From Lentisphaerae bacterium WC36 (GTDB lineage: Bacteria > Verrucomicrobiota > Lentisphaeria > Victivallales > SZUA-371), in contig CP085689.1 of assembly GCA_020683205.1 (NCBI GenBank), forward strand, positions 2,162,230-2,226,229: a stretch of 64,000 bases of DNA, given 5' to 3'. Positions within the stretch are counted from its first letter, which is position 1. Every line of letters begins with the position of its first letter. Under the pieces are notes generated by a model. That model had not been told where the DNA came from. It searched no databases and saw nothing but the letters and a program-made list of their open reading frames with translations. Shown here piece after piece: positions 52,934 to 60,850 of the stretch. A program made the position numbers and the translations under genes.

Positions 52934-53143
52934 AATTACCTCTTTATTACACTTTATAATTTAATATATATTCTACATTAAAGAAAACAATTTTTAGTAT
53001 AAAAAAACACCACAATTTTTCAACTATGCTGTTTGATTACATTACTCATGTTTTGATAGTTTTTTATTAATTTACTAAATGGCGAATAATCATAACGATT
53101 CGCTATCGGACCTGAACTCATAGCAATCAATGGATAAACGTTT

Positions 53144-53380
53144 TTATTTAGATTTTGTTAATAAAGATTTTTTATTGTACTCAAGAACATATTTAGCCAA
53201 TTCTCTAGTTTTTTTATCTAGGTCATTTTCATATATATAATTTGCTTTTTCTTCTAACTTATTTAGTGAAATTAATATTAATGCTAATCCGTCTTGACGA
53301 CAGCAAGGATCATTGCTGGTTAAAAATTTATCAATGGTATTCTCTGTTACTAAAATTTGATTTGCTATAATTAATCTCAT
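53144..53380 (-). CDS. Small hypothetical protein (78 aa)
   Basis: ORF only. Confidence 0.25.
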   Translation of the reverse strand: MRLIIANQILVTENTIDKFLTSNDPCCRQDGLALILISLNKLEEKANYIYENDLDKKTRELAKYVLEYNKKSLLTKSK

Positions 53381-53658
53381 AGAATTTTTTTATTTTCTTC
53401 ATCTTGAAATAATTTTTTTTCTAATGTTAATTGTAACTGAGGAATTTTCTTCATTTTTTTAAAAAATTTATTTGCAATATATATAATTTTTTTTGTTTCT
53501 TTTGGAGAAAAATTAGTGTAATCTTTTGATAAATTTTTATTTATTTCAATGCTAATATTACGGTAAAATTTTTCAGTATTAAATTGTTCACTTCGACTTG
53601 AAAAAAAAGTTTGAAGAAGCATAACAGAGATTAGTGCAAATATTAGTATATTTTTCAT
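53377..53658 (-). CDS. Small secreted hypothetical protein (93 aa)
   Basis: Signal peptide-like N-terminus; overlaps the next gene by 4 nt. Confidence 0.3.
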   Translation of the reverse strand: MKNILIFALISVMLLQTFFSSRSEQFNTEKFYRNISIEINKNLSKDYTNFSPKETKKIIYIANKFFKKMKKIPQLQLTLEKKLFQDEENKKIL

Positions 53659-53675
53659 AAGTATAACCTATATAT

Positions 53676-54023
53676 CTATTTTTTTGCAAATTTACACGAT
53701 TTTGAAAGTGAAAGAAAGAACGCATCTAGAGCCTTTTCTATAGCTATTGCAGCTTTTGCATCTCCTGATTTTATACCAACTGTTAGTCCAACTTCTTTTG
53801 CACACTTCATCCCTTTACTCGCTACTTCATCGCAACATCCTTTCTTTAATGCATTATATGCTTCTTTGCATACAGGAATAGATGCCAAAGCACCTAAAGT
53901 TTGATCGGCAATAAGGAGTTGTGCTATTTGTTTCGACGAGAACTTACCTGCCAACAGATTTATTAAACCAATTGCATCATTTAGTTTATTTTTGAATTTT
54001 TCTCCATCTTTAAAAGGATCTTT
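53676..54023 (-). CDS. Small Cys-containing hypothetical protein; the frame is open upstream to 54023 with no ATG (TTG start at 53954)
   Basis: ORF with an alternative start; possibly a gene remnant. Confidence 0.2.
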   Translation of the reverse strand, partial: KDPFKDGEKFKNKLNDAIGLINLLAGKFSSKQIAQLLIADQTLGALASIPVCKEAYNALKKGCCDEVASKGMKCAKEVGLTVGIKSGDAKAAIAIEKALDAFFLSLSKSCKFAKK

Positions 54024-54391: not shown

Positions 54392-54589
54392 TTACTCTCT
54401 CTTAAGAGTCAAAATGGTACCGAAAGAATGTTGTAGTTTTGGATATATACCTAAAGTTTTACTACCTCCTAAATTTTCATCTGATTGTTTACTTAATAAT
54501 TGATTATTTAGGTTATTGATTTTATACTGGCATGAAACCATCATTAGTACGGTAACAATTATATATAGAAATACTATATTTTTTTTCAT
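54392..54589 (-). CDS. Small lipoprotein (65 aa), candidate immunity protein for cassette 1
   Basis: Signal/lipobox MMVSC; starts 22 nt after the toxin-1 stop. Confidence 0.35.
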   Translation of the reverse strand: MKKNIVFLYIIVTVLMMVSCQYKINNLNNQLLSKQSDENLGGSKTLGIYPKLQHSFGTILTLKRE

Positions 54590-54611
54590 ATTGATAAGTC
54601 CTTATATAGAT

Positions 54612-55499
54612 TTAGTAATTACTGCATGTTTTACCTTTTGATTTAAAAGTAGGATTACTACATTGAATACACCATGCTTCAGAATTAAAGTCTGCATAGC
54701 TTTCTTTCCACTCCTCTTCAGTACTTTCATAAATTGTTCCACTTCTTATTGGATAATCAGGATGATAATCACCTGTACCATCATCATCTATATCGGGATT
54801 GTGATATTGGTCAGCATGTGTAATAGAACCATCTGGATTTACATAACCATAATCAAACTTAATACTATCTTCATCCATACCTTCCTTATCCCAATTACTA
54901 AAATCAGCTTTGCCTGTTTTAGGGTCAAACGTTACATCAGGATTTATACCATCTTTGCCTTTATCATTCCAAAAGTGAACTGAAAACATTTTTGGACAAA
55001 CCTTGTCTTTGCATTTATTTTTCATTTCTCCCTGAGCATCTGTTGCTTGTTGTTTTGTTTTATAGCAATTATCATGATTTTCAATAACTCCAGTATTAGC
55101 ACAAACAACTCCGACACATCCCCTATTTATTTGTTTTCTCACCCAAGGTGCATATATAATATTCCCAGGATTTTCTTTAAATTTAGGGTGTGCATCAAAA
55201 TATTTTTTTAAATAATCTTCCAACGACATTTCTGTTCTTAATCCTAAAATATCATAGAAAACAATTGGATTATTGTACGAATTCCCATAAATGTTTTCTC
55301 CACCTTTTTCTTGGATTGGGTCACGTTTTAACCATTTTCCTGTGCTTGGGTTGTAATAACGGTAATTGTAATAGATTAATCCTGTTTCTTTTTCAGCATA
55401 TTCACTACTGAATTTGAACACGTTTTCAACATTCTCATCTGTTTTTGCTAATTGTCCAAATGGGCTATAATCGTATTTATTAGCGATTTCTCCTGTTGT
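54612..55499 (-). CDS. Rhs-family C-terminal orphan cassette 1; homology begins right after a stop at about 55499, with the first ATG at 55421
   Basis: …LTTGEIANKYDYSPFGQLAKTDENVENVFKFSSEYAEKETGLIYYNYRYYNPSTGKWLKRDPIQEKGGENIYG…DILGL followed by a unique ~200-aa Cys-rich C-terminal domain. Confidence 0.65.
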   Translation of the reverse strand, partial: TTGEIANKYDYSPFGQLAKTDENVENVFKFSSEYAEKETGLIYYNYRYYNPSTGKWLKRDPIQEKGGENIYGNSYNNPIVFYDILGLRTEMSLEDYLKKYFDAHPKFKENPGNIIYAPWVRKQINRGCVGVVCANTGVIENHDNCYKTKQQATDAQGEMKNKCKDKVCPKMFSVHFWNDKGKDGINPDVTFDPKTGKADFSNWDKEGMDEDSIKFDYGYVNPDGSITHADQYHNPDIDDDGTGDYHPDYPIRSGTIYESTEEEWKESYADFNSEAWCIQCSNPTFKSKGKTCSNY

Positions 55500-55565
55500 T
55501 AATTATCTTATCCTTGTTAATCACATCCTAAATATTTAAACTTCTTTTATACTTTTTTTACAAAA

Positions 55566-55594
55566 AACATCGATCAAAAATTTTAATCGATGTT
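55566..55594 (-). terminator. Hairpin (aacatcgat…atcgatgtt) followed by a T-run on the minus strand, downstream of the immunity gene 55620..55835
   Basis: 9-bp perfect inverted repeat; the minus-strand 3' flank is TTTTTGTAAAAAAA. Confidence 0.4.
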
Positions 55595-55619: not shown

Positions 55620-55835
55620 TTAAGTTCTTATTTTGGGCAAAAAAACTGTAAATATATATATAACATAAACGACTATTAGTAGAAAAATAAGACATATTTT
55701 TTTAAATAGTTTTTTTTCTTTTATAAGATTTTTTAAAATAATAATAAAACCATATAAATAAAAAATAAATTTAATAATTTCTAATATTTTCATAATTATC
55801 CATTTTTTAATAATATAGTAAATAACATTAAGCAC
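55620..55835 (-). CDS. 71-aa two-TM membrane protein, candidate immunity protein for cassette 2
   Basis: Begins 3 nt after the toxin-2 stop; entirely hydrophobic helices. Confidence 0.5.
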   Translation of the reverse strand: MLNVIYYIIKKWIIMKILEIIKFIFYLYGFIIILKNLIKEKKLFKKICLIFLLIVVYVIYIFTVFLPKIRT

Positions 55836-55838
55836 ATA

Positions 55839-56588
55839 CTATTCTCTTTTACTTAGACATTTATCCATGCAATTTTGATGATTCTCTCTAATATTATTTT
55901 GCTCTATTATAAATAACGCTGATACCAATGCAGCACAAGGTAAAGCAAAAGGTCCTCCTCCTGCAAGGCAGACTGCTACCTTAAGTAAATAAGCTGAATT
56001 TGAAATACCTAGAGCAACAATTAAAGCCGCTTCACAACAATTAGCACACTTTTTCTTGCAGTGCTTACCGCAACCTTTAGCAAACCAATCTACGCCTCTT
56101 AAAAGTAATTCTGCTCCAAGACCAATTATTGTAAACTTCGCTACAAAGTCTTGCCCTAAATGGTCTTTGTTTGATATAGGTTGATTATTAACAAAACCGT
56201 ATAAATTAAATCCACCGTCTTCTTCGATTGGGTCGCGGGATAGCCATTTTCCTGTGCTTGGATTATAATAACGGTAATTGTAATAAATTAAGCCACTTTT
56301 TTCGTCATGGAATTCAGAACTGAATTTGAAAACATTCGCCACGGTTTCGTTATCTAACGATAACTGACCGAATGGCGAATAATCATAACGATTCGCAACC
56401 GAACCTGAACTCATATCAATCAACTGCGTAATATTTTTATTGCCATCTGCGATGTAATTAAATACCACTCCATCTTTTTCTAATGCCAATAAATTATCAC
56501 CTAACCATACAAATCTATTACTTATTAACGAACTATTCAACTCATTAACGGTTTTTATTAGCTTATATTTGTTAAGAAAACACACCAT
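55839..56588 (-). CDS. Rhs C-terminal orphan cassette 2 with a small hydrophobic, Gly/Ala/Cys-rich (membrane-targeting?) toxin domain
   Basis: N-terminus retains …FVWLGDNLLALEKDGVVFNYIADGNKNITQLIDMSSGSVANRYDYSPFGQL…YYNYRYYNPSTGKWLSRDPIEEDGG…DHLGQ; the C-terminus is …AGGGPFALPCAALVSALFII…. Confidence 0.65.
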   Translation of the reverse strand: MVCFLNKYKLIKTVNELNSSLISNRFVWLGDNLLALEKDGVVFNYIADGNKNITQLIDMSSGSVANRYDYSPFGQLSLDNETVANVFKFSSEFHDEKSGLIYYNYRYYNPSTGKWLSRDPIEEDGGFNLYGFVNNQPISNKDHLGQDFVAKFTIIGLGAELLLRGVDWFAKGCGKHCKKKCANCCEAALIVALGISNSAYLLKVAVCLAGGGPFALPCAALVSALFIIEQNNIRENHQNCMDKCLSKRE

Positions 56589-56655
56589 AATTTGTCAAAT
56601 TATGGTGTTTAAAAATTCTTCAATTGATCTAATTTACAAGTTAAAGAGTTAAAAT

Positions 56656-57135
56656 TTATTTTTTTAATGGCTTGTCAAACGCTGGAATAACATATTCATT
56701 CCACATTTTTTTAGTAATCCAAGTCTTACCGCCTTCTTTATATTTTAATTTATCTAGCTCAATTCCAGGAATTTTTATTTCATGAACCCCACTTTTGTCG
56801 ACAATTAGAATTTTCCCTAATGCGTCAATTTTTTTGCCATCAAAATATACTTGATTCTTATAGCTAGAAAAATATGTTAATCCTTTACTAGTTATGAGCT
56901 TTTTATCAAATTTTATATAACTTAAATTTGTCCAATATACACCTTTTTTTATGAACATTATGTATTGTACTTTATCCTTGTAACAAATTGCCTCCCAACT
57001 ATATGAGTAATTAGTTTTCTCATCAAAGTAATTACTGTTTGAAATAACACTAAAATCGTCCATAGAAGGCTTACAGCTAGTAAAAATAAATATAGTATAA
57101 AATAAACTAAACATTAATACAGTTTTTTTCATCAA
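56656..57135 (-). CDS. Lipoprotein (159 aa), candidate immunity protein for cassette 3
   Basis: ATG at 57132 with AGGAGA; lipobox FTSC; starts 6 nt after the toxin-3 stop. Confidence 0.5.
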   Translation of the reverse strand: MMKKTVLMFSLFYTIFIFTSCKPSMDDFSVISNSNYFDEKTNYSYSWEAICYKDKVQYIMFIKKGVYWTNLSYIKFDKKLITSKGLTYFSSYKNQVYFDGKKIDALGKILIVDKSGVHEIKIPGIELDKLKYKEGGKTWITKKMWNEYVIPAFDKPLKK

Positions 57136-57141
57136 TATCTC

Positions 57142-58137
57142 CTATTTTTTACATGAACATATTAAAACAAAAGTTCGGTGAACTTTCCATACCGCCCCTG
57201 CATTATGACTAATACTTCTTTCATTAGAAACCCCTCCTACATCACCGTTACCAATATTTACCCCATCAGCATTTGTGATAGCTCCACCAACTTTACCAAT
57301 TAGGTTTAAACTAATAGTTACGGTATGTTCTTTTTCTCCTTGATTGTCAATTGTTGGAGTGTCCATTAAAACTTTAACATAGAGGGGACCACTACTTGTA
57401 TTTTTTGCTGAACCTTTATCTGTTGACCCAGTCATTCTTATTTGTCCTGTATCAGAATCACATTTGAAGGAAAGTTTAATTCTTGTTGACACATCATATG
57501 TTTTCCATCCTGTAAATGTCCGCATGAAAGAATTTGCATACCTAAATCGCCCTCTTATAACAGCACTAACTGAATTACTTGAAGCAGTAGCCATTCCTCC
57601 AAATTGAACTCTAGATTTGTATTTATACAAAAGACCTGGCTGACCTGGAGCAAAAGAATGCTGTCTCAACCAGAACGAATAATCTTGCACTTCTTCGTCA
57701 ATGTGCAATTTTCCAGGTTCTCCCTCTGGCGCATCCCAGCTCCATTTTAATCCTAAACTATCTATATTTTTTATAGTATCATTGCCTACAAAACTATATA
57801 AATTGTCTCCGCCTTTTTCTTCGATTGGGTCTCTGCTGAGCCATTTGCCGTTTACAGGATTATAATATCTATAATTGTAATAAATTAAGCCTGTTTCTTT
57901 TTCAGCGTATTCGCTTGAAAATTTGAATGGATTTTCAACCGTTTCTACGTCCGCAATTAGCTGACCAAAAGGCGAATAATCATAACGATTCGCTATTGAA
58001 CCCGAACTCATATCAATCAACTGAGTGATATTTTTATTGCCATCTGCGATGTAATTAAATGCTACGCCATCTTTTTCTAATGCCAATAAATTATCACCTA
58101 ACCATACAAATCTATCACTTATTGAGCTACCATTCAA
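57142..58137 (-). CDS. Rhs C-terminal orphan cassette 3 (TTG start; frame open from a TAATAA at about 58160)
   Basis: Conserved FVWLGDNLLALEKDG…YYNYRYYNPVNGKWLSRDPIEEKGG…DSLGL followed by a unique ~200-aa C-terminal domain. Confidence 0.65.
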   Translation of the reverse strand: MNGSSISDRFVWLGDNLLALEKDGVAFNYIADGNKNITQLIDMSSGSIANRYDYSPFGQLIADVETVENPFKFSSEYAEKETGLIYYNYRYYNPVNGKWLSRDPIEEKGGDNLYSFVGNDTIKNIDSLGLKWSWDAPEGEPGKLHIDEEVQDYSFWLRQHSFAPGQPGLLYKYKSRVQFGGMATASSNSVSAVIRGRFRYANSFMRTFTGWKTYDVSTRIKLSFKCDSDTGQIRMTGSTDKGSAKNTSSGPLYVKVLMDTPTIDNQGEKEHTVTISLNLIGKVGGAITNADGVNIGNGDVGGVSNERSISHNAGAVWKVHRTFVLICSCKK

Positions 58138-58229
58138 CTCATTGCTATTTTTTTATTAGCTTATATTTGTTATAAAAACACCACAACTTTTTGCATTATG
58201 GTGTTTTATTTACTATCCTTAGACCAAGT

Positions 58230-58955
58230 TTATTTAACAATAAAGCTTTTTATAAATTTATGCGTTGACGCATCAAAGAATAAATACAAGACTCCTCCAA
58301 GCATCGAATCATTAAGATCTTTCCATGTTGGTCGTTCGCTTACATCTACTAAAATAAAATCTTCTCCAGAACCATTTAGTTTAAAAGCTTCAGCATTGTA
58401 TCTATCAATAAAAGCAATCCCCTTTACACAATTCGTGAGTTCTTCATAATTATATATTGGATTACTTTTTACCTTTTTATTTATTACATTATAAAGTATT
58501 TCTCTAAAAGACGTCGTTATTTTTGCTTTTAAATGAAACAGGTCTTTAGTAACTTTTAAAGAGTTATTTTTAGGCTTAAATAAAATTTTTTTTATTATTT
58601 TACATTTTTTATAATCTGCCAGCAAAACAATATCTCCATATTCAGCTTGAGTTGAGCTCAGTGTGATTATAACAAAACCAGAATGTTTTTTCTTTTCGTC
58701 TAATTTGTAGTTATAAACCTTCAATAGAAGCCCTTTCACTGTTTCATAAGATACAAGTCGGACTCTTTTTAAAATGTATTTTTTTTCAATTAATTTATTT
58801 TTTTCCGCATACTCATCTACCAAATTTAAATATGGAGCTATTCTTAAATTTTTGTAAGAGAAAGTTTTTAATCTATTTTTTTCACACATAAAATAAGAAC
58901 AAATAGCTAATAAAAAAACAATTAATATTGTGAATATTACAATTTTATTTTTCAT
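58230..58955 (-). CDS. Membrane-anchored protein (241 aa), candidate immunity protein for cassette 4; paralogue of 63187..63942
   Basis: N-terminal TM helix; colinear similarity to 63187..63942 (FSY--L-I--YL--VD--A-ENKLIEKKY-L-R…). Confidence 0.5.
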   Translation of the reverse strand: MKNKIVIFTILIVFLLAICSYFMCEKNRLKTFSYKNLRIAPYLNLVDEYAEKNKLIEKKYILKRVRLVSYETVKGLLLKVYNYKLDEKKKHSGFVIITLSSTQAEYGDIVLLADYKKCKIIKKILFKPKNNSLKVTKDLFHLKAKITTSFREILYNVINKKVKSNPIYNYEELTNCVKGIAFIDRYNAEAFKLNGSGEDFILVDVSERPTWKDLNDSMLGGVLYLFFDASTHKFIKSFIVK

Positions 58956-58970
58956 TTTATATTACCTTTT

Positions 58971-59909
58971 TTATTTAATAGGACCATAATCTGTGACGCT
59001 TTCATCATCAACAGGTGAACCATCATCAGAACCTGAGCCTGGATCAAATTTTTTCATATTTCCCTGAGGGGTAAAGAGATAATTAGGCATTCGATTCTTA
59101 CGTGAATATGGTTTGTCTCCTATGTTTTTCTCCGTGTCTTCGTCATAGTCCTCTGAAAATTCTTCATTTTCTTCAGGAGTATTACGCTTCATTCTGAATC
59201 CCCATGCCTTGTCAAAGTCTGTTTTAGCTTTACTATTTGGATCATTACTACCGTGAGTATGCCAAATTGCGGTAGGCTTAGAACCACTAGGACATGGTGC
59301 ATTTGTAGGGTCACAACCTTGCACATCTCCTTTTGTCACCGTTGTAAAATATTTATATTTACCTTTTACACACTTTTTACAAACATACCCACAATACTCA
59401 ATATCCTCTTTTATTGATTTAGGATTCATCTCCTTGCCTCGTTTTCTTGCAGCATCTATCTCGCTGTCTGAATAATCAGGATCTTTAGGTTTAGGCTTGC
59501 GAGGAACGTAATAATGGGGATAGTTTTCTTTATGATTCCTTGAATTACTGCCAATAATACCATGAAAACTTAAGCCCAAAATATCAATATAATTTATTGA
59601 ATCATTATAAATAAAGTTATAAATATTCCACGCACCATATTCTTCTATTGGGTCGCGGTTAAGCCATTTTCCGTTTACAGGATTATAATATCTATAATTA
59701 TAGTAAACTAGACCTGTTTCTTTTTCGGCATATTCACTACTGAATTTGAATACGTTTTCAACATTCTCATCTGTTTTTGCTAATTGTCCAAATGGGCTAT
59801 AATCGTATTTATTAGCGATTTCTCCTGTTGTTAAATTAATCAACTGCGTGATATTTTTATTGCCATCGGCGATGTAATTAAATACCACACCATCTTTTTC
59901 TAATGCCAA
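58971..59909 (-). CDS. Rhs C-terminal orphan cassette 4 (no ATG; the frame opens directly after the TGA/TAG of the upstream immunity gene)
   Basis: …FVWLGDNLLALEKDGVVFNYIADGNKNITQLINLTTGEIANKYDYSPFGQL…YYNYRYYNPVNGKWLNRDPIEEYG…DILGL; the C-terminal domain has Cys clusters and IWHTHG. Confidence 0.6.
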   Translation of the reverse strand: MALEKDGVVFNYIADGNKNITQLINLTTGEIANKYDYSPFGQLAKTDENVENVFKFSSEYAEKETGLVYYNYRYYNPVNGKWLNRDPIEEYGAWNIYNFIYNDSINYIDILGLSFHGIIGSNSRNHKENYPHYYVPRKPKPKDPDYSDSEIDAARKRGKEMNPKSIKEDIEYCGYVCKKCVKGKYKYFTTVTKGDVQGCDPTNAPCPSGSKPTAIWHTHGSNDPNSKAKTDFDKAWGFRMKRNTPEENEEFSEDYDEDTEKNIGDKPYSRKNRMPNYLFTPQGNMKKFDPGSGSDDGSPVDDESVTDYGPIK

Positions 59910-59941
59910 TAAATTATCACCTAACCATACAAAAACAGGCG

Positions 59942-60763
59942 CTAATTTACTTCACTGAAATTTTCAATAATTTTACTACGATTTCTATCTTTCTTATATT
60001 TATTTTTATACTCTTTTGTAGCCTTATTTTCAACAGCTCCTAACTCTTTTAAGCAACTAATAATTTTATCATTGGCTCCATATGAATAAGCACAATTTAA
60101 AACGTTGTTATTTTTATCATACCAACTTGTTGAGTTGATATCAAATCCCTCTTGACATAGCAATTTTAAAACTTCAACATTTTCTTCAACAATAGCTTTT
60201 CTAAATAAAAAAAATGATTCCGTTTTCTTTTTGATTCCTGTTAAAATAAACTTTAAACATTTCATACTTTTATATTTCAATGCCAAAGCATAAATATTAC
60301 TCTGAGAGTAAGAAAGATTATTTTTTTCTTTATTAGCAATCCATTGTTTTAAAGCCTGAAGGTTATCGACACTAATTTCATACGCAATAGTTTTTTTCAC
60401 TCCATTTTTCAATAATGTTTGCGTCATCTTTTTTCTTTTTAAAAAAATGGTCCTGTTCAAATAATGTTGTTGCTTATATCTAAATTGAAAATTATTTTCA
60501 ATTAAGCATTTAAAATGATCGAACATATTATGGGTAATACAAAAATCTAAATAATCACTACCATACTTATCTTTCAATTTAAAAACTTCAGGATTTGTAT
60601 TAATTTTTTGAACAAGTTCTTTATTATCCATTGCACAGAGATTTCGAAAAATTTCTATTACACTATCCTTTTCTTTAATTATGTGACTGCTTTTATAATA
60701 AAGAACCAGTATCATTGCTAAAATCGTTACACTAATTGAAATATATTTAAGTTTTTTTTTCAT
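59942..60763 (-). CDS. Ankyrin-repeat-like membrane-anchored protein (273 aa), candidate immunity protein for cassette 5
   Basis: Signal/TM; repeats of the …LNCAYSYGANDKIISCLKELGA… type. Confidence 0.45.
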   Translation of the reverse strand: MKKKLKYISISVTILAMILVLYYKSSHIIKEKDSVIEIFRNLCAMDNKELVQKINTNPEVFKLKDKYGSDYLDFCITHNMFDHFKCLIENNFQFRYKQQHYLNRTIFLKRKKMTQTLLKNGVKKTIAYEISVDNLQALKQWIANKEKNNLSYSQSNIYALALKYKSMKCLKFILTGIKKKTESFFLFRKAIVEENVEVLKLLCQEGFDINSTSWYDKNNNVLNCAYSYGANDKIISCLKELGAVENKATKEYKNKYKKDRNRSKIIENFSEVN

Positions 60764-60850
60764 AAACTACCCTTTTTATCTTGGTAATCATCTTTTAAAA
60801 AAAGATGATTACCTAACTTTTAAAGTAATATTGTAAAATTTAAGCCAAGG

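Follow-up and report, generated by a model that had tools for sequence, protein, structure and literature searches.

Probable recombination handles and terminator hairpins in an array of displaced rhs toxin/immunity cassettes of Lentisphaerae bacterium WC36

A 64,000-nucleotide stretch of the Lentisphaerae bacterium WC36 genome (contig CP085689.1, positions 2,162,230 to 2,226,229; hereafter the window) carries a run of toxin/immunity cassettes in which one DNA sequence and one kind of hairpin recur. Why should DNA be kept almost base for base in cassettes whose toxin domains are unrelated, and what do the hairpins do for the genes around them? A preliminary description, made from the letters of the window, proposed that the repeats allow RecA-mediated toxin switching and that one hairpin buries a start codon, so that the orphan toxins stay silent until recombined. 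The sequence evidence places the region in an array of rhs toxin/immunity cassettes that are displaced ('orphan') and follow a full-length rhs gene. There is clear evidence that the repeat has acted as a recombination handle, and the hairpins are most likely intrinsic (Rho-independent) terminators.

The flanks of the window and a second array were read from CP151801.1 (Lentisphaerota bacterium WC36G), a single contig of 3.66 Mb. Array 1 is the array in the window and its flank; array 2 is the remote second array. L001 denotes the flank beyond the window end, L013, L014, L017 and L018 the array-2 region, and L015 a metagenome contig of a relative. We use CT for the variable C-terminal toxin domain of an orphan, B1 for the best-conserved ∼100-nt block of the repeat, and B2 for the next block. 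All genes of the cassette region lie on the minus strand.

The repeat and the rhs core

The string that first drew attention, 67 nt long and held within B1, is present in exactly four window copies (56434-56500, 58031-58097, 59854-59920 and 63105-63171). Outside the positions originally given as degenerate each copy has 0-1 mismatches, and any two copies are distinguished by 2-3 of the 67 positions; the near-identical repeats reported for cassettes 2, 3, 4 and 6 are thus confirmed, ∼10 nt or less from where they had been placed. The string is part of a longer direct repeat of 268-424 nt with six copies in the window. This longer repeat is coding sequence, namely the 3′ end of the rhs core: the open reading frames (ORFs) of all six orphans match TIGR03696 Rhs_assc_core (E 1e-21 to 1e-24). 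Core homology stops at a D-x-x-G-L/Q motif, after which come the variable CTs, which are mutually unrelated. The core segments are as follows.

62822-63175, minus strand: rhs core 3′ fragment of cassette 6; string at 63105-63171; ends at a DDLGL motif; TIGR03696 E 3.5e-24
61442-61755, minus strand: rhs core 3′ fragment of cassette 5; cut off within B1, the string being reduced to its final 24 nt
59571-59937, minus strand: rhs core 3′ fragment of cassette 4; string at 59854-59920; a 102-nt exact tract in common with the main rhs
57748-58171, minus strand: rhs core 3′ fragment of cassette 3; string at 58031-58097; leader homologous to main rhs codons NKYKLIKTV..., with a 1-nt frameshift
56151-56573, minus strand: rhs core 3′ fragment of cassette 2; string at 56434-56500; leader homologous to main rhs coding sequence, in frame
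55239-55506, minus strand: rhs core 3′ fragment of cassette 1; cut off in B2; an 83-nt exact tract in common with the main rhs
53066-53148, minus strand: rhs core remnant of 83 nt; 80% identity to cassettes 2/3; without a toxin domain; near the array end

Homology to the main rhs begins at a different point in each orphan. Cassette 1 had been said to start mid-motif, and its core does begin inside the core, at 55506. What looked like a separate 'leader' in cassettes 2 and 3 is ordinary coding sequence in the main rhs (...KSFIY NKYKLIKTVDELNNGSISDRFVWLGDNLLALEKDG...).

Conservation is uneven along the repeat. Among the main rhs and the six orphans that retain B1, identity in this block is 85-97% (87-97% to the main rhs). 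B2 falls into two lineages, with at least 94% identity within and 55-60% between them, and the last 145 nt of the repeat show 62-82% identity.

Upstream, and oriented like the orphans, is the full-length rhs gene, which lies outside the window; its 3′ end is ∼6 kb past the window end, at window-equivalent position 69932. It is called at 1962 aa, and the 3′ 1336 codons, which were read, match YD_repeat_2x (E 7e-25), RHS_core and Rhs_assc_core. Four further orphans stand between it and the window, and array 1 comprises the main rhs, ten clear orphans, one degenerate orphan and the remnant.

Recombination through the repeat

Exact tracts in common with the main rhs measure 102 nt in cassette 4, 83 nt in cassette 1, 64 nt in cassette 3, 54 nt in cassette 6 and 49 nt in cassette 2; further tracts are 62 and 44 nt long. 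RecA-dependent exchange in E. coli requires a minimum of roughly 25 nt, so that the homology is long enough for homologous recombination in every one of these cases.

Two patterns within the repeat bear on whether such exchange has taken place. Where the two B2 lineages have the same amino acid, the fraction of codons that differ is 0.12 in B1 against 0.53 in B2. The identity of B1 at the DNA level is therefore not explained by codon bias or protein constraint, and homogenisation fits; codon bias alone was rejected as its cause on this synonymous comparison. When B2 type is set against the downstream block of Arg codons, all four possible combinations are present (9, 6, 8 and 2 times).

A further line of evidence comes from array 2, which lies 1.95 Mb from array 1 in inverted orientation (CP151801.1 3,507,765-3,568,874; L014, L018, L013 and L017). 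It holds 32 core fragments, all in one orientation, over ∼49 kb, with no full-length rhs at its head, and brings the 3.66-Mb genome to at least 43 rhs core fragments. The two arrays have a single long near-identical tract in common:

59848-63159, minus strand: tract common to array 2; 63159-60077 is 100% identical (3083 nt), followed by five mismatches over ∼230 nt and divergence from 59847

Running from within the cassette-6 B1 to the end of the cassette-4 B1, this 3.3-kb tract has both breakpoints in copies of the 67-nt string. By the position of these ends, cassettes have evidently moved between the arrays via the repeat.

The reading frame is open from repeat to stop codon in all six window orphans (6/6), and an in-register crossover between the main rhs and an orphan would consequently give an in-frame chimeric Rhs while deleting 7.6-15.1 kb. 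We infer, by analogy with Salmonella, that an orphan CT could be fused in frame to the main Rhs in this manner. The original proposal that the repeats are substrates for RecA-type recombination is thus well supported, by the exact tracts, the open frames, the inter-array tract with its ends in repeats, and the Salmonella precedent considered below.

These observations lead us to a reading that we hold to be probable. The locus would be a displaced-orphan array in which each orphan begins with a conserved rhs core fragment, and in which B1, near-identical in the main rhs and most orphans, acts as a recombination handle. Homologous recombination within B1 would have two outcomes, either joining an orphan CT in frame to the main Rhs shell or moving whole cassettes between arrays. 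The hairpins would be coding-strand terminators, derived from the terminator that closes the locus.

Some orphans carry more than a core fragment and a CT. A conserved leader is found in two array-2 orphans (L013 5150-5330 and L014 15942-16122) and in two orphans of the metagenomic relative (L015 710-960 and 2371-2620). In order, it comprises a hairpin of the family described in the next section, ∼70 nt of promoter-like AT-rich sequence (TTAAGATATATTA), a Shine-Dalgarno (SD) motif GGAAGGTG, and an ATG opening MLNECLKL(D/E). The leader is joined to the core at different points. This organization suggests that some orphans are independent expression units.

The two arrays might also form a two-site switching system, with the full-length rhs and its 11 orphans as expression locus and the remote inverted set of 32 cassettes as archive. 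B1-flanked gene conversion would then operate as in pilE/pilS, and the subclass with the MLNECLKL leader would make stand-alone mini-Rhs proteins or drive its own immunity genes. We regard this more elaborate scheme as possible, though doubtful.

Could B1 instead be conserved at the DNA level for a function of its own? The block reads TT AGGTGAT AATTTA TTG, that is, an SD-like motif, 6 nt and a TTG; NCBI starts several orphans at this TTG (MALEKDG...), and the organism does use SD motifs (14 of 21 long ORFs, against a background of 9%). B1 could accordingly be an internal ribosome-binding site that permits stand-alone translation of orphans, its identity owing nothing to recombination. This we think unlikely. 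The motif is not retained in the related metagenome contig, which reads TGGATCGGCGATAATTTGTTA; the homogenised stretch of ∼100 nt far exceeds a ribosome-binding site; and the perfect inter-array tract, together with the four-gamete pattern of B2 types and Arg-codon blocks, is a direct sign of recombination.

Hairpins and cassette junctions

Four hairpins of the window need to be distinguished.

58175-58207, minus strand: family hairpin with U-tail, 13 pairs with two G·U; 23 nt past the cassette-4 immunity stop; likely intrinsic terminator
56582-56608, minus strand: family hairpin with U-tail (GUUUUCUU); 48 nt past the cassette-3 immunity stop; likely intrinsic terminator
55566-55594, minus strand: hairpin of unrelated sequence, 13 pairs, then UUUUUU; after the cassette-2 immunity gene; terminator-like
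53005-53035, minus strand: family hairpin with U-tail that closes array 1; the same hairpin and downstream flank close array 2

The first two had been described as conserved perfect palindromes, which holds for one of them. The hairpin at 56582-56608 is a perfect 13+1+13 DNA palindrome that folds into 12 bp with a 3-nt loop (-14.4 kcal/mol, z -3.3), but the one at 58175-58207 is mismatched as DNA at 2 of 13 positions. Its minus-strand RNA forms 13 pairs, two of them G·U, at -14.8 kcal/mol as against -8.3 kcal/mol for the other strand. A pattern fitting both hairpins gave three matches in the window and none in 100 shuffles; the three matches represent two sites, the palindrome at 56583-56607 being matched on both strands.

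Both are members of a family that is defined by the stem AACACCAUAAU/AUUAUGGUGUU and numbers 14 copies: array 1 has four, array 2 seven, and the relative's 4.2-kb metagenome contig three. In array 1 the family occupies three of 11 cassette junctions, and the fourth copy closes the array. The stems comprise 12-13 pairs (-12 to -16 kcal/mol), the tails are UUUUU or longer, and the hairpins stand 12-48 nt past stop codons. RNA of the coding strand is clearly more stable than that of the opposite strand in nine of 13 aligned copies; one further copy closes array 2. In the family alignment 90.5% of cells are paired, and changes on one side only produce G·U in the coding-strand RNA. The two arrays are alike at their ends, each closing with the family hairpin, a common downstream flank and a DUF1573 gene (86% nt identity). 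A terminator scan returned 11 terminator-like sites where 3.7 were expected, calling 56608-56582 (minus strand) and not 58207-58175; Rfam at gathering thresholds gave no match in the window. The position after stop codons, the U-tract, the better fold of the coding strand and the fact that the family also closes both arrays are the grounds on which the hairpins are most likely to be terminators.

The junctions suggest how such a terminator could have come to lie inside the array. Six orphans have the junction hairpin-T-run|AACAAATATAAG; at the corresponding point the main rhs reads CATTTATATAT|AAC, and the terminal hairpin reads GGTGTTTTTTTATAC. From this we infer one old tandem duplication of the locus, with its junction at a TTTATA microhomology common to the terminator tail and the rhs codons ...FIY|NKYKLIK, which would have copied the closing terminator into the array and later spread with the cassettes. 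At least ten orphans have homology to the main rhs beginning within a few nt of one point (|AACAAATATAAGCTAAT), with sites at L001 6234, 15772 and 17370 in array 1 and at seven positions in array 2.

An almost common 5′ boundary (...T|AACAAATATAAG) in at least ten orphans, a stem kept in sequence and not only in structure across 14 copies, three of them in the metagenomic relative, and a hairpin family found always at cassette borders could together point to recombination sites of a cassette-capture system, either integron attC-like or served by a hairpin-recognising transposase, with a dedicated recombinase inserting at a fixed point. We consider this quite improbable. The family is present at only three of 11 junctions in array 1, and array 2 has seven copies for its 32 fragments. 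attC sites are imperfect palindromes of 57-141 nt, an architecture that these simple stem-loops of 24-33 nt do not have. Apart from DUF1573, the genes scanned beside either array had no Pfam match, and no integrase or transposase was seen there (the whole genome was not searched). Furthermore, the one recent transfer ends in the B1 coding repeat and not at hairpins. The integron-like attC version was rejected on hairpin length, on the minority of junctions occupied and on the lack of a recombinase family among the flanking genes scanned.

The start codon said to be buried in the cassette-2 hairpin is where it was reported, with CAT (minus-strand ATG) at 56586-56588 in the 3′ arm. The possibility arises that the hairpin exerts translational control by hiding this start, the orphan being silent until recombination removes the leader. 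The stem (-14.4 kcal/mol) persists in a 146-nt context, the ORF from the ATG is open through the toxin, and an equivalent in-frame ATG is present at one paralogous junction beyond the window, that of orphan o2. Such a role is nonetheless very hard to credit. No SD motif was found ahead of the cassette-2 arm ATG, and NCBI starts the toxin gene at a downstream TTG. The arm codon is an in-frame ATG at two of six paralogous junctions and GTG, ATA or out of frame at the other four, the loss of frame at some of them reflecting variation in the length of the T-run. The hairpin itself has a U-tail, stands just past the upstream stop codon and resembles a terminator, the family closes both arrays with no orphan after it, and the supposed leader is former rhs coding sequence (NKYKLIKTV...). 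The proposal of a translational switch is therefore not supported: the ATG is most likely a by-product of the stem sequence AUUAUGGUG, which would here be read in the old rhs frame, and not a conserved device.

The remaining start signals give a mixed picture. The heads of cassettes 3, 4 and 5 have no ATG; in cassette 6 there is an ATG but no good SD, and the ATG of cassette 2 is the one within the hairpin. It had been stated that cassettes 3 and 4 have no in-frame ATG; this is correct upstream of the block, where TTG is the only candidate, but internal in-frame ATGs exist further down. A strong SD had likewise been attributed to every immunity gene. The AGGAGA given as an example is there (57138-57143, spaced 5 nt from the ATG at 57132), but only two of the seven genes have a motif so strong; in four others the motif is a weaker AAGGA/AAGG. 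Cassettes 2 and 3 are plausibly silent until recombined, since they lie directly behind the likely terminators and have no start signal. A general silence of orphans is tempered by the start that NCBI uses in B1 (AGGTGAT, 6 nt, TTG) and by the leaders elsewhere that combine an SD with an ATG.

There is finally the suggestion that the identical 3.1-kb tract is an assembly artefact, with no recent exchange behind it, as assembly is difficult where more than 40 similar fragments stand in arrays; this is extremely unlikely, given that the record is a single 3.66-Mb contig, that unique cassettes, different in the two arrays, adjoin the tract on either side, and that identity drops from 100% to ∼60% at the biologically meaningful B1/B2 boundary.

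A displaced-orphan array with B1 as handle and with inherited terminators thus remains our preferred reading, and the following observations weigh against it. No fusion of main rhs and orphan was seen, and scans of genomes and metagenomes returned only relatives at 46-53% aa identity and no strain-level variants: the protein-profile scan of genome contigs found one Victivallaceae metagenome-assembled genome (49%), that of metagenome contigs ten human-gut contigs (46-53%), and an exact-pattern scan of genome contigs for the B1 string gave 0 matches. Identity between orphan core fragments and the main rhs is modest overall (∼68-89% over the part aligned by BLAST), and recombination is for this reason expected to be infrequent. 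With a simple deletion, moreover, the main immunity gene would be lost as well, together with the cassettes in between. With regard to the hairpins, the family stems are AT-rich with only three G-C pairs, and termination is a prediction. The family shows no double compensatory covariation, so its conservation could be plain descent. Lastly, four of the at least ten orphans with the common boundary have unrelated sequence upstream in place of a hairpin, and one ancestral junction therefore explains that boundary incompletely.

Contents of the cassettes

The gene pairs of the window are listed here together.

62240-63181, 60851-61786, 58971-59909, 57142-58137, 55839-56588 and 54612-55499, minus strand: six orphan toxin ORFs (cassettes 6 to 1), each a core fragment plus a CT of 103-208 aa
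63187-63942, 61758-62222, 59942-60763 (ankyrin repeats), 58230-58955, 56656-57132, 55620-55835 and 54392-54589, minus strand: putative immunity genes, one after each toxin

Among these putative toxin domains, the CT of cassette 4 is the only one with a Pfam match (DUF4329). The CT of cassette 3 (57142-57747) has no Pfam match and was unique in a word-index search; an exhaustive search of 1.84 billion representative proteins found one clear relative (46% identity, 179 aa) and three marginal ones. The DUF4329 domain is present in three paralogous cassettes (window 58971-59570, L001 9144-10004 and L013 12036-13665) with related immunity proteins of 241-251 aa, and cassette 4 and the L013 copy have 83% nt identity.

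The putative immunity ORFs encode 65-273 aa and lie 3-90 nt past the toxin stop or overlap the next orphan ORF, most of them with an SD-like motif. All seven proteins begin MKK... followed by a hydrophobic stretch, and in several a lipobox-like Cys is present. Their appearance is that of exported or membrane-anchored proteins, a hint that the toxins perhaps act at the envelope.

Several other features were noted in array 1. The degenerate orphan (53676-54021, minus strand) reads KDPFKDGEKFKNKLNDAIGL, which is a core remnant of ∼20 codons, and continues with a 92-aa CT-like ORF, followed by two small ORFs at 53377-53658 and 53144-53380. A second kind of internal repeat links window positions 54581-54868 with L001 5318-5605 (97.6% identity over 288 nt); here the 3′ part of the cassette-1 toxin gene, together with the beginning of the gene that follows, matches the 3′ end of orphan o1. 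There is also a perfect 14-bp palindrome at 60783-60813 (GGTAATCATCTTTT...AAAAGATGATTACC; -20 kcal/mol in context, z -3.9), which lies between the cassette-5 toxin stop and the ankyrin-repeat immunity gene and has no U-tail on the coding strand.

Relation to known systems

The closest parallel to a switch of this kind is Salmonella Typhimurium LT2, in which a main rhs and an orphan CT/immunity pair share 522 bp at 95% identity, and recombination that fuses the orphan toxin to the main Rhs was shown experimentally (Koskiniemi et al. 2014, PMC3967940). In that strain the orphan has no initiation or export signals, and recombination follows a duplication, by which the main immunity gene is kept (PMC3967940). 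WC36 has the same arrangement of a full-length rhs followed by orphan CT/immunity pairs that start with a near-identical core fragment (PMC3967940). It differs in number, with 11 orphans in array 1 and 32 core fragments in array 2 in place of one orphan, and in homology, which is shorter and mosaic (85-97% identity over ∼100 nt, the exact tracts being 44-102 nt long). It differs also in phylum (Lentisphaerota), and fusion was not observed here.

Long arrays of rhs orphans, and genomes with orphans only, are known (PMC8125069). The bee-gut genera Snodgrassella and Gilliamella have C-terminal displacement arrays, and G. apicola has orphan-only sets without a full-length gene (PMC8125069). Such arrays are found in Enterobacteria as well, and the reservoir hypothesis put forward for them applies here equally (PMC8125069). 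WC36 differs from the bee-gut arrays (PMC8125069) in that a perfect 3.1-kb tract is common to the main array and to a remote, inverted one that has no full-length gene. A second difference is that family terminator hairpins, as we read them, mark some of the cassette borders in WC36.

Orphan modules are also a feature of contact-dependent inhibition (CDI). The cdiA-CT/cdiI modules, reportedly described by Poole and colleagues in 2011, are said to occur in tandem, each keeping a short conserved stretch upstream of the variable CT. In both systems the retained stretch can act as a recombination handle; CdiA, however, has a VENN motif at this place, in contrast to the Rhs YD shell and its DxxGL boundary. 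In Neisseria pilE/pilS and Borrelia vlsE one expression site is supplied by many promoterless partial copies, with copying through short conserved blocks. The likeness to such silent-cassette systems extends to how they work and no further. WC36 shows no evidence of high frequency, directionality or a dedicated initiating structure, and whole toxin and immunity cassettes move here as opposed to short variable segments.

The hairpins resemble Rho-independent terminators in having a stem-loop and U-tract just past a stop codon on the coding strand. They depart from ordinary terminators in that one stem (AACACCAUAAU...AUUAUGGUGUU) recurs at many borders, and also in a related organism; this favours descent along with the cassette over separate origins.

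Taken together, these analyses provide unusually clean sequence evidence on the use of orphan Rhs reservoirs: a perfect 3.1-kb block with both ends in a short core block, and a B1 made uniform at synonymous sites, where the remainder of the core is divided into old lineages. They extend the orphan-array phenomenon at large scale to the Lentisphaerota, within the Planctomycetes-Verrucomicrobia-Chlamydiae (PVC) group, and, the strain being in culture, toxin switching, terminator insulation and orphan expression are open to direct testing. The current model of Rhs evolution is unchanged: the mechanism is known biology, that of C-terminal displacement and of orphan Rhs switching in Salmonella, in a new phylum and on an unusual scale.

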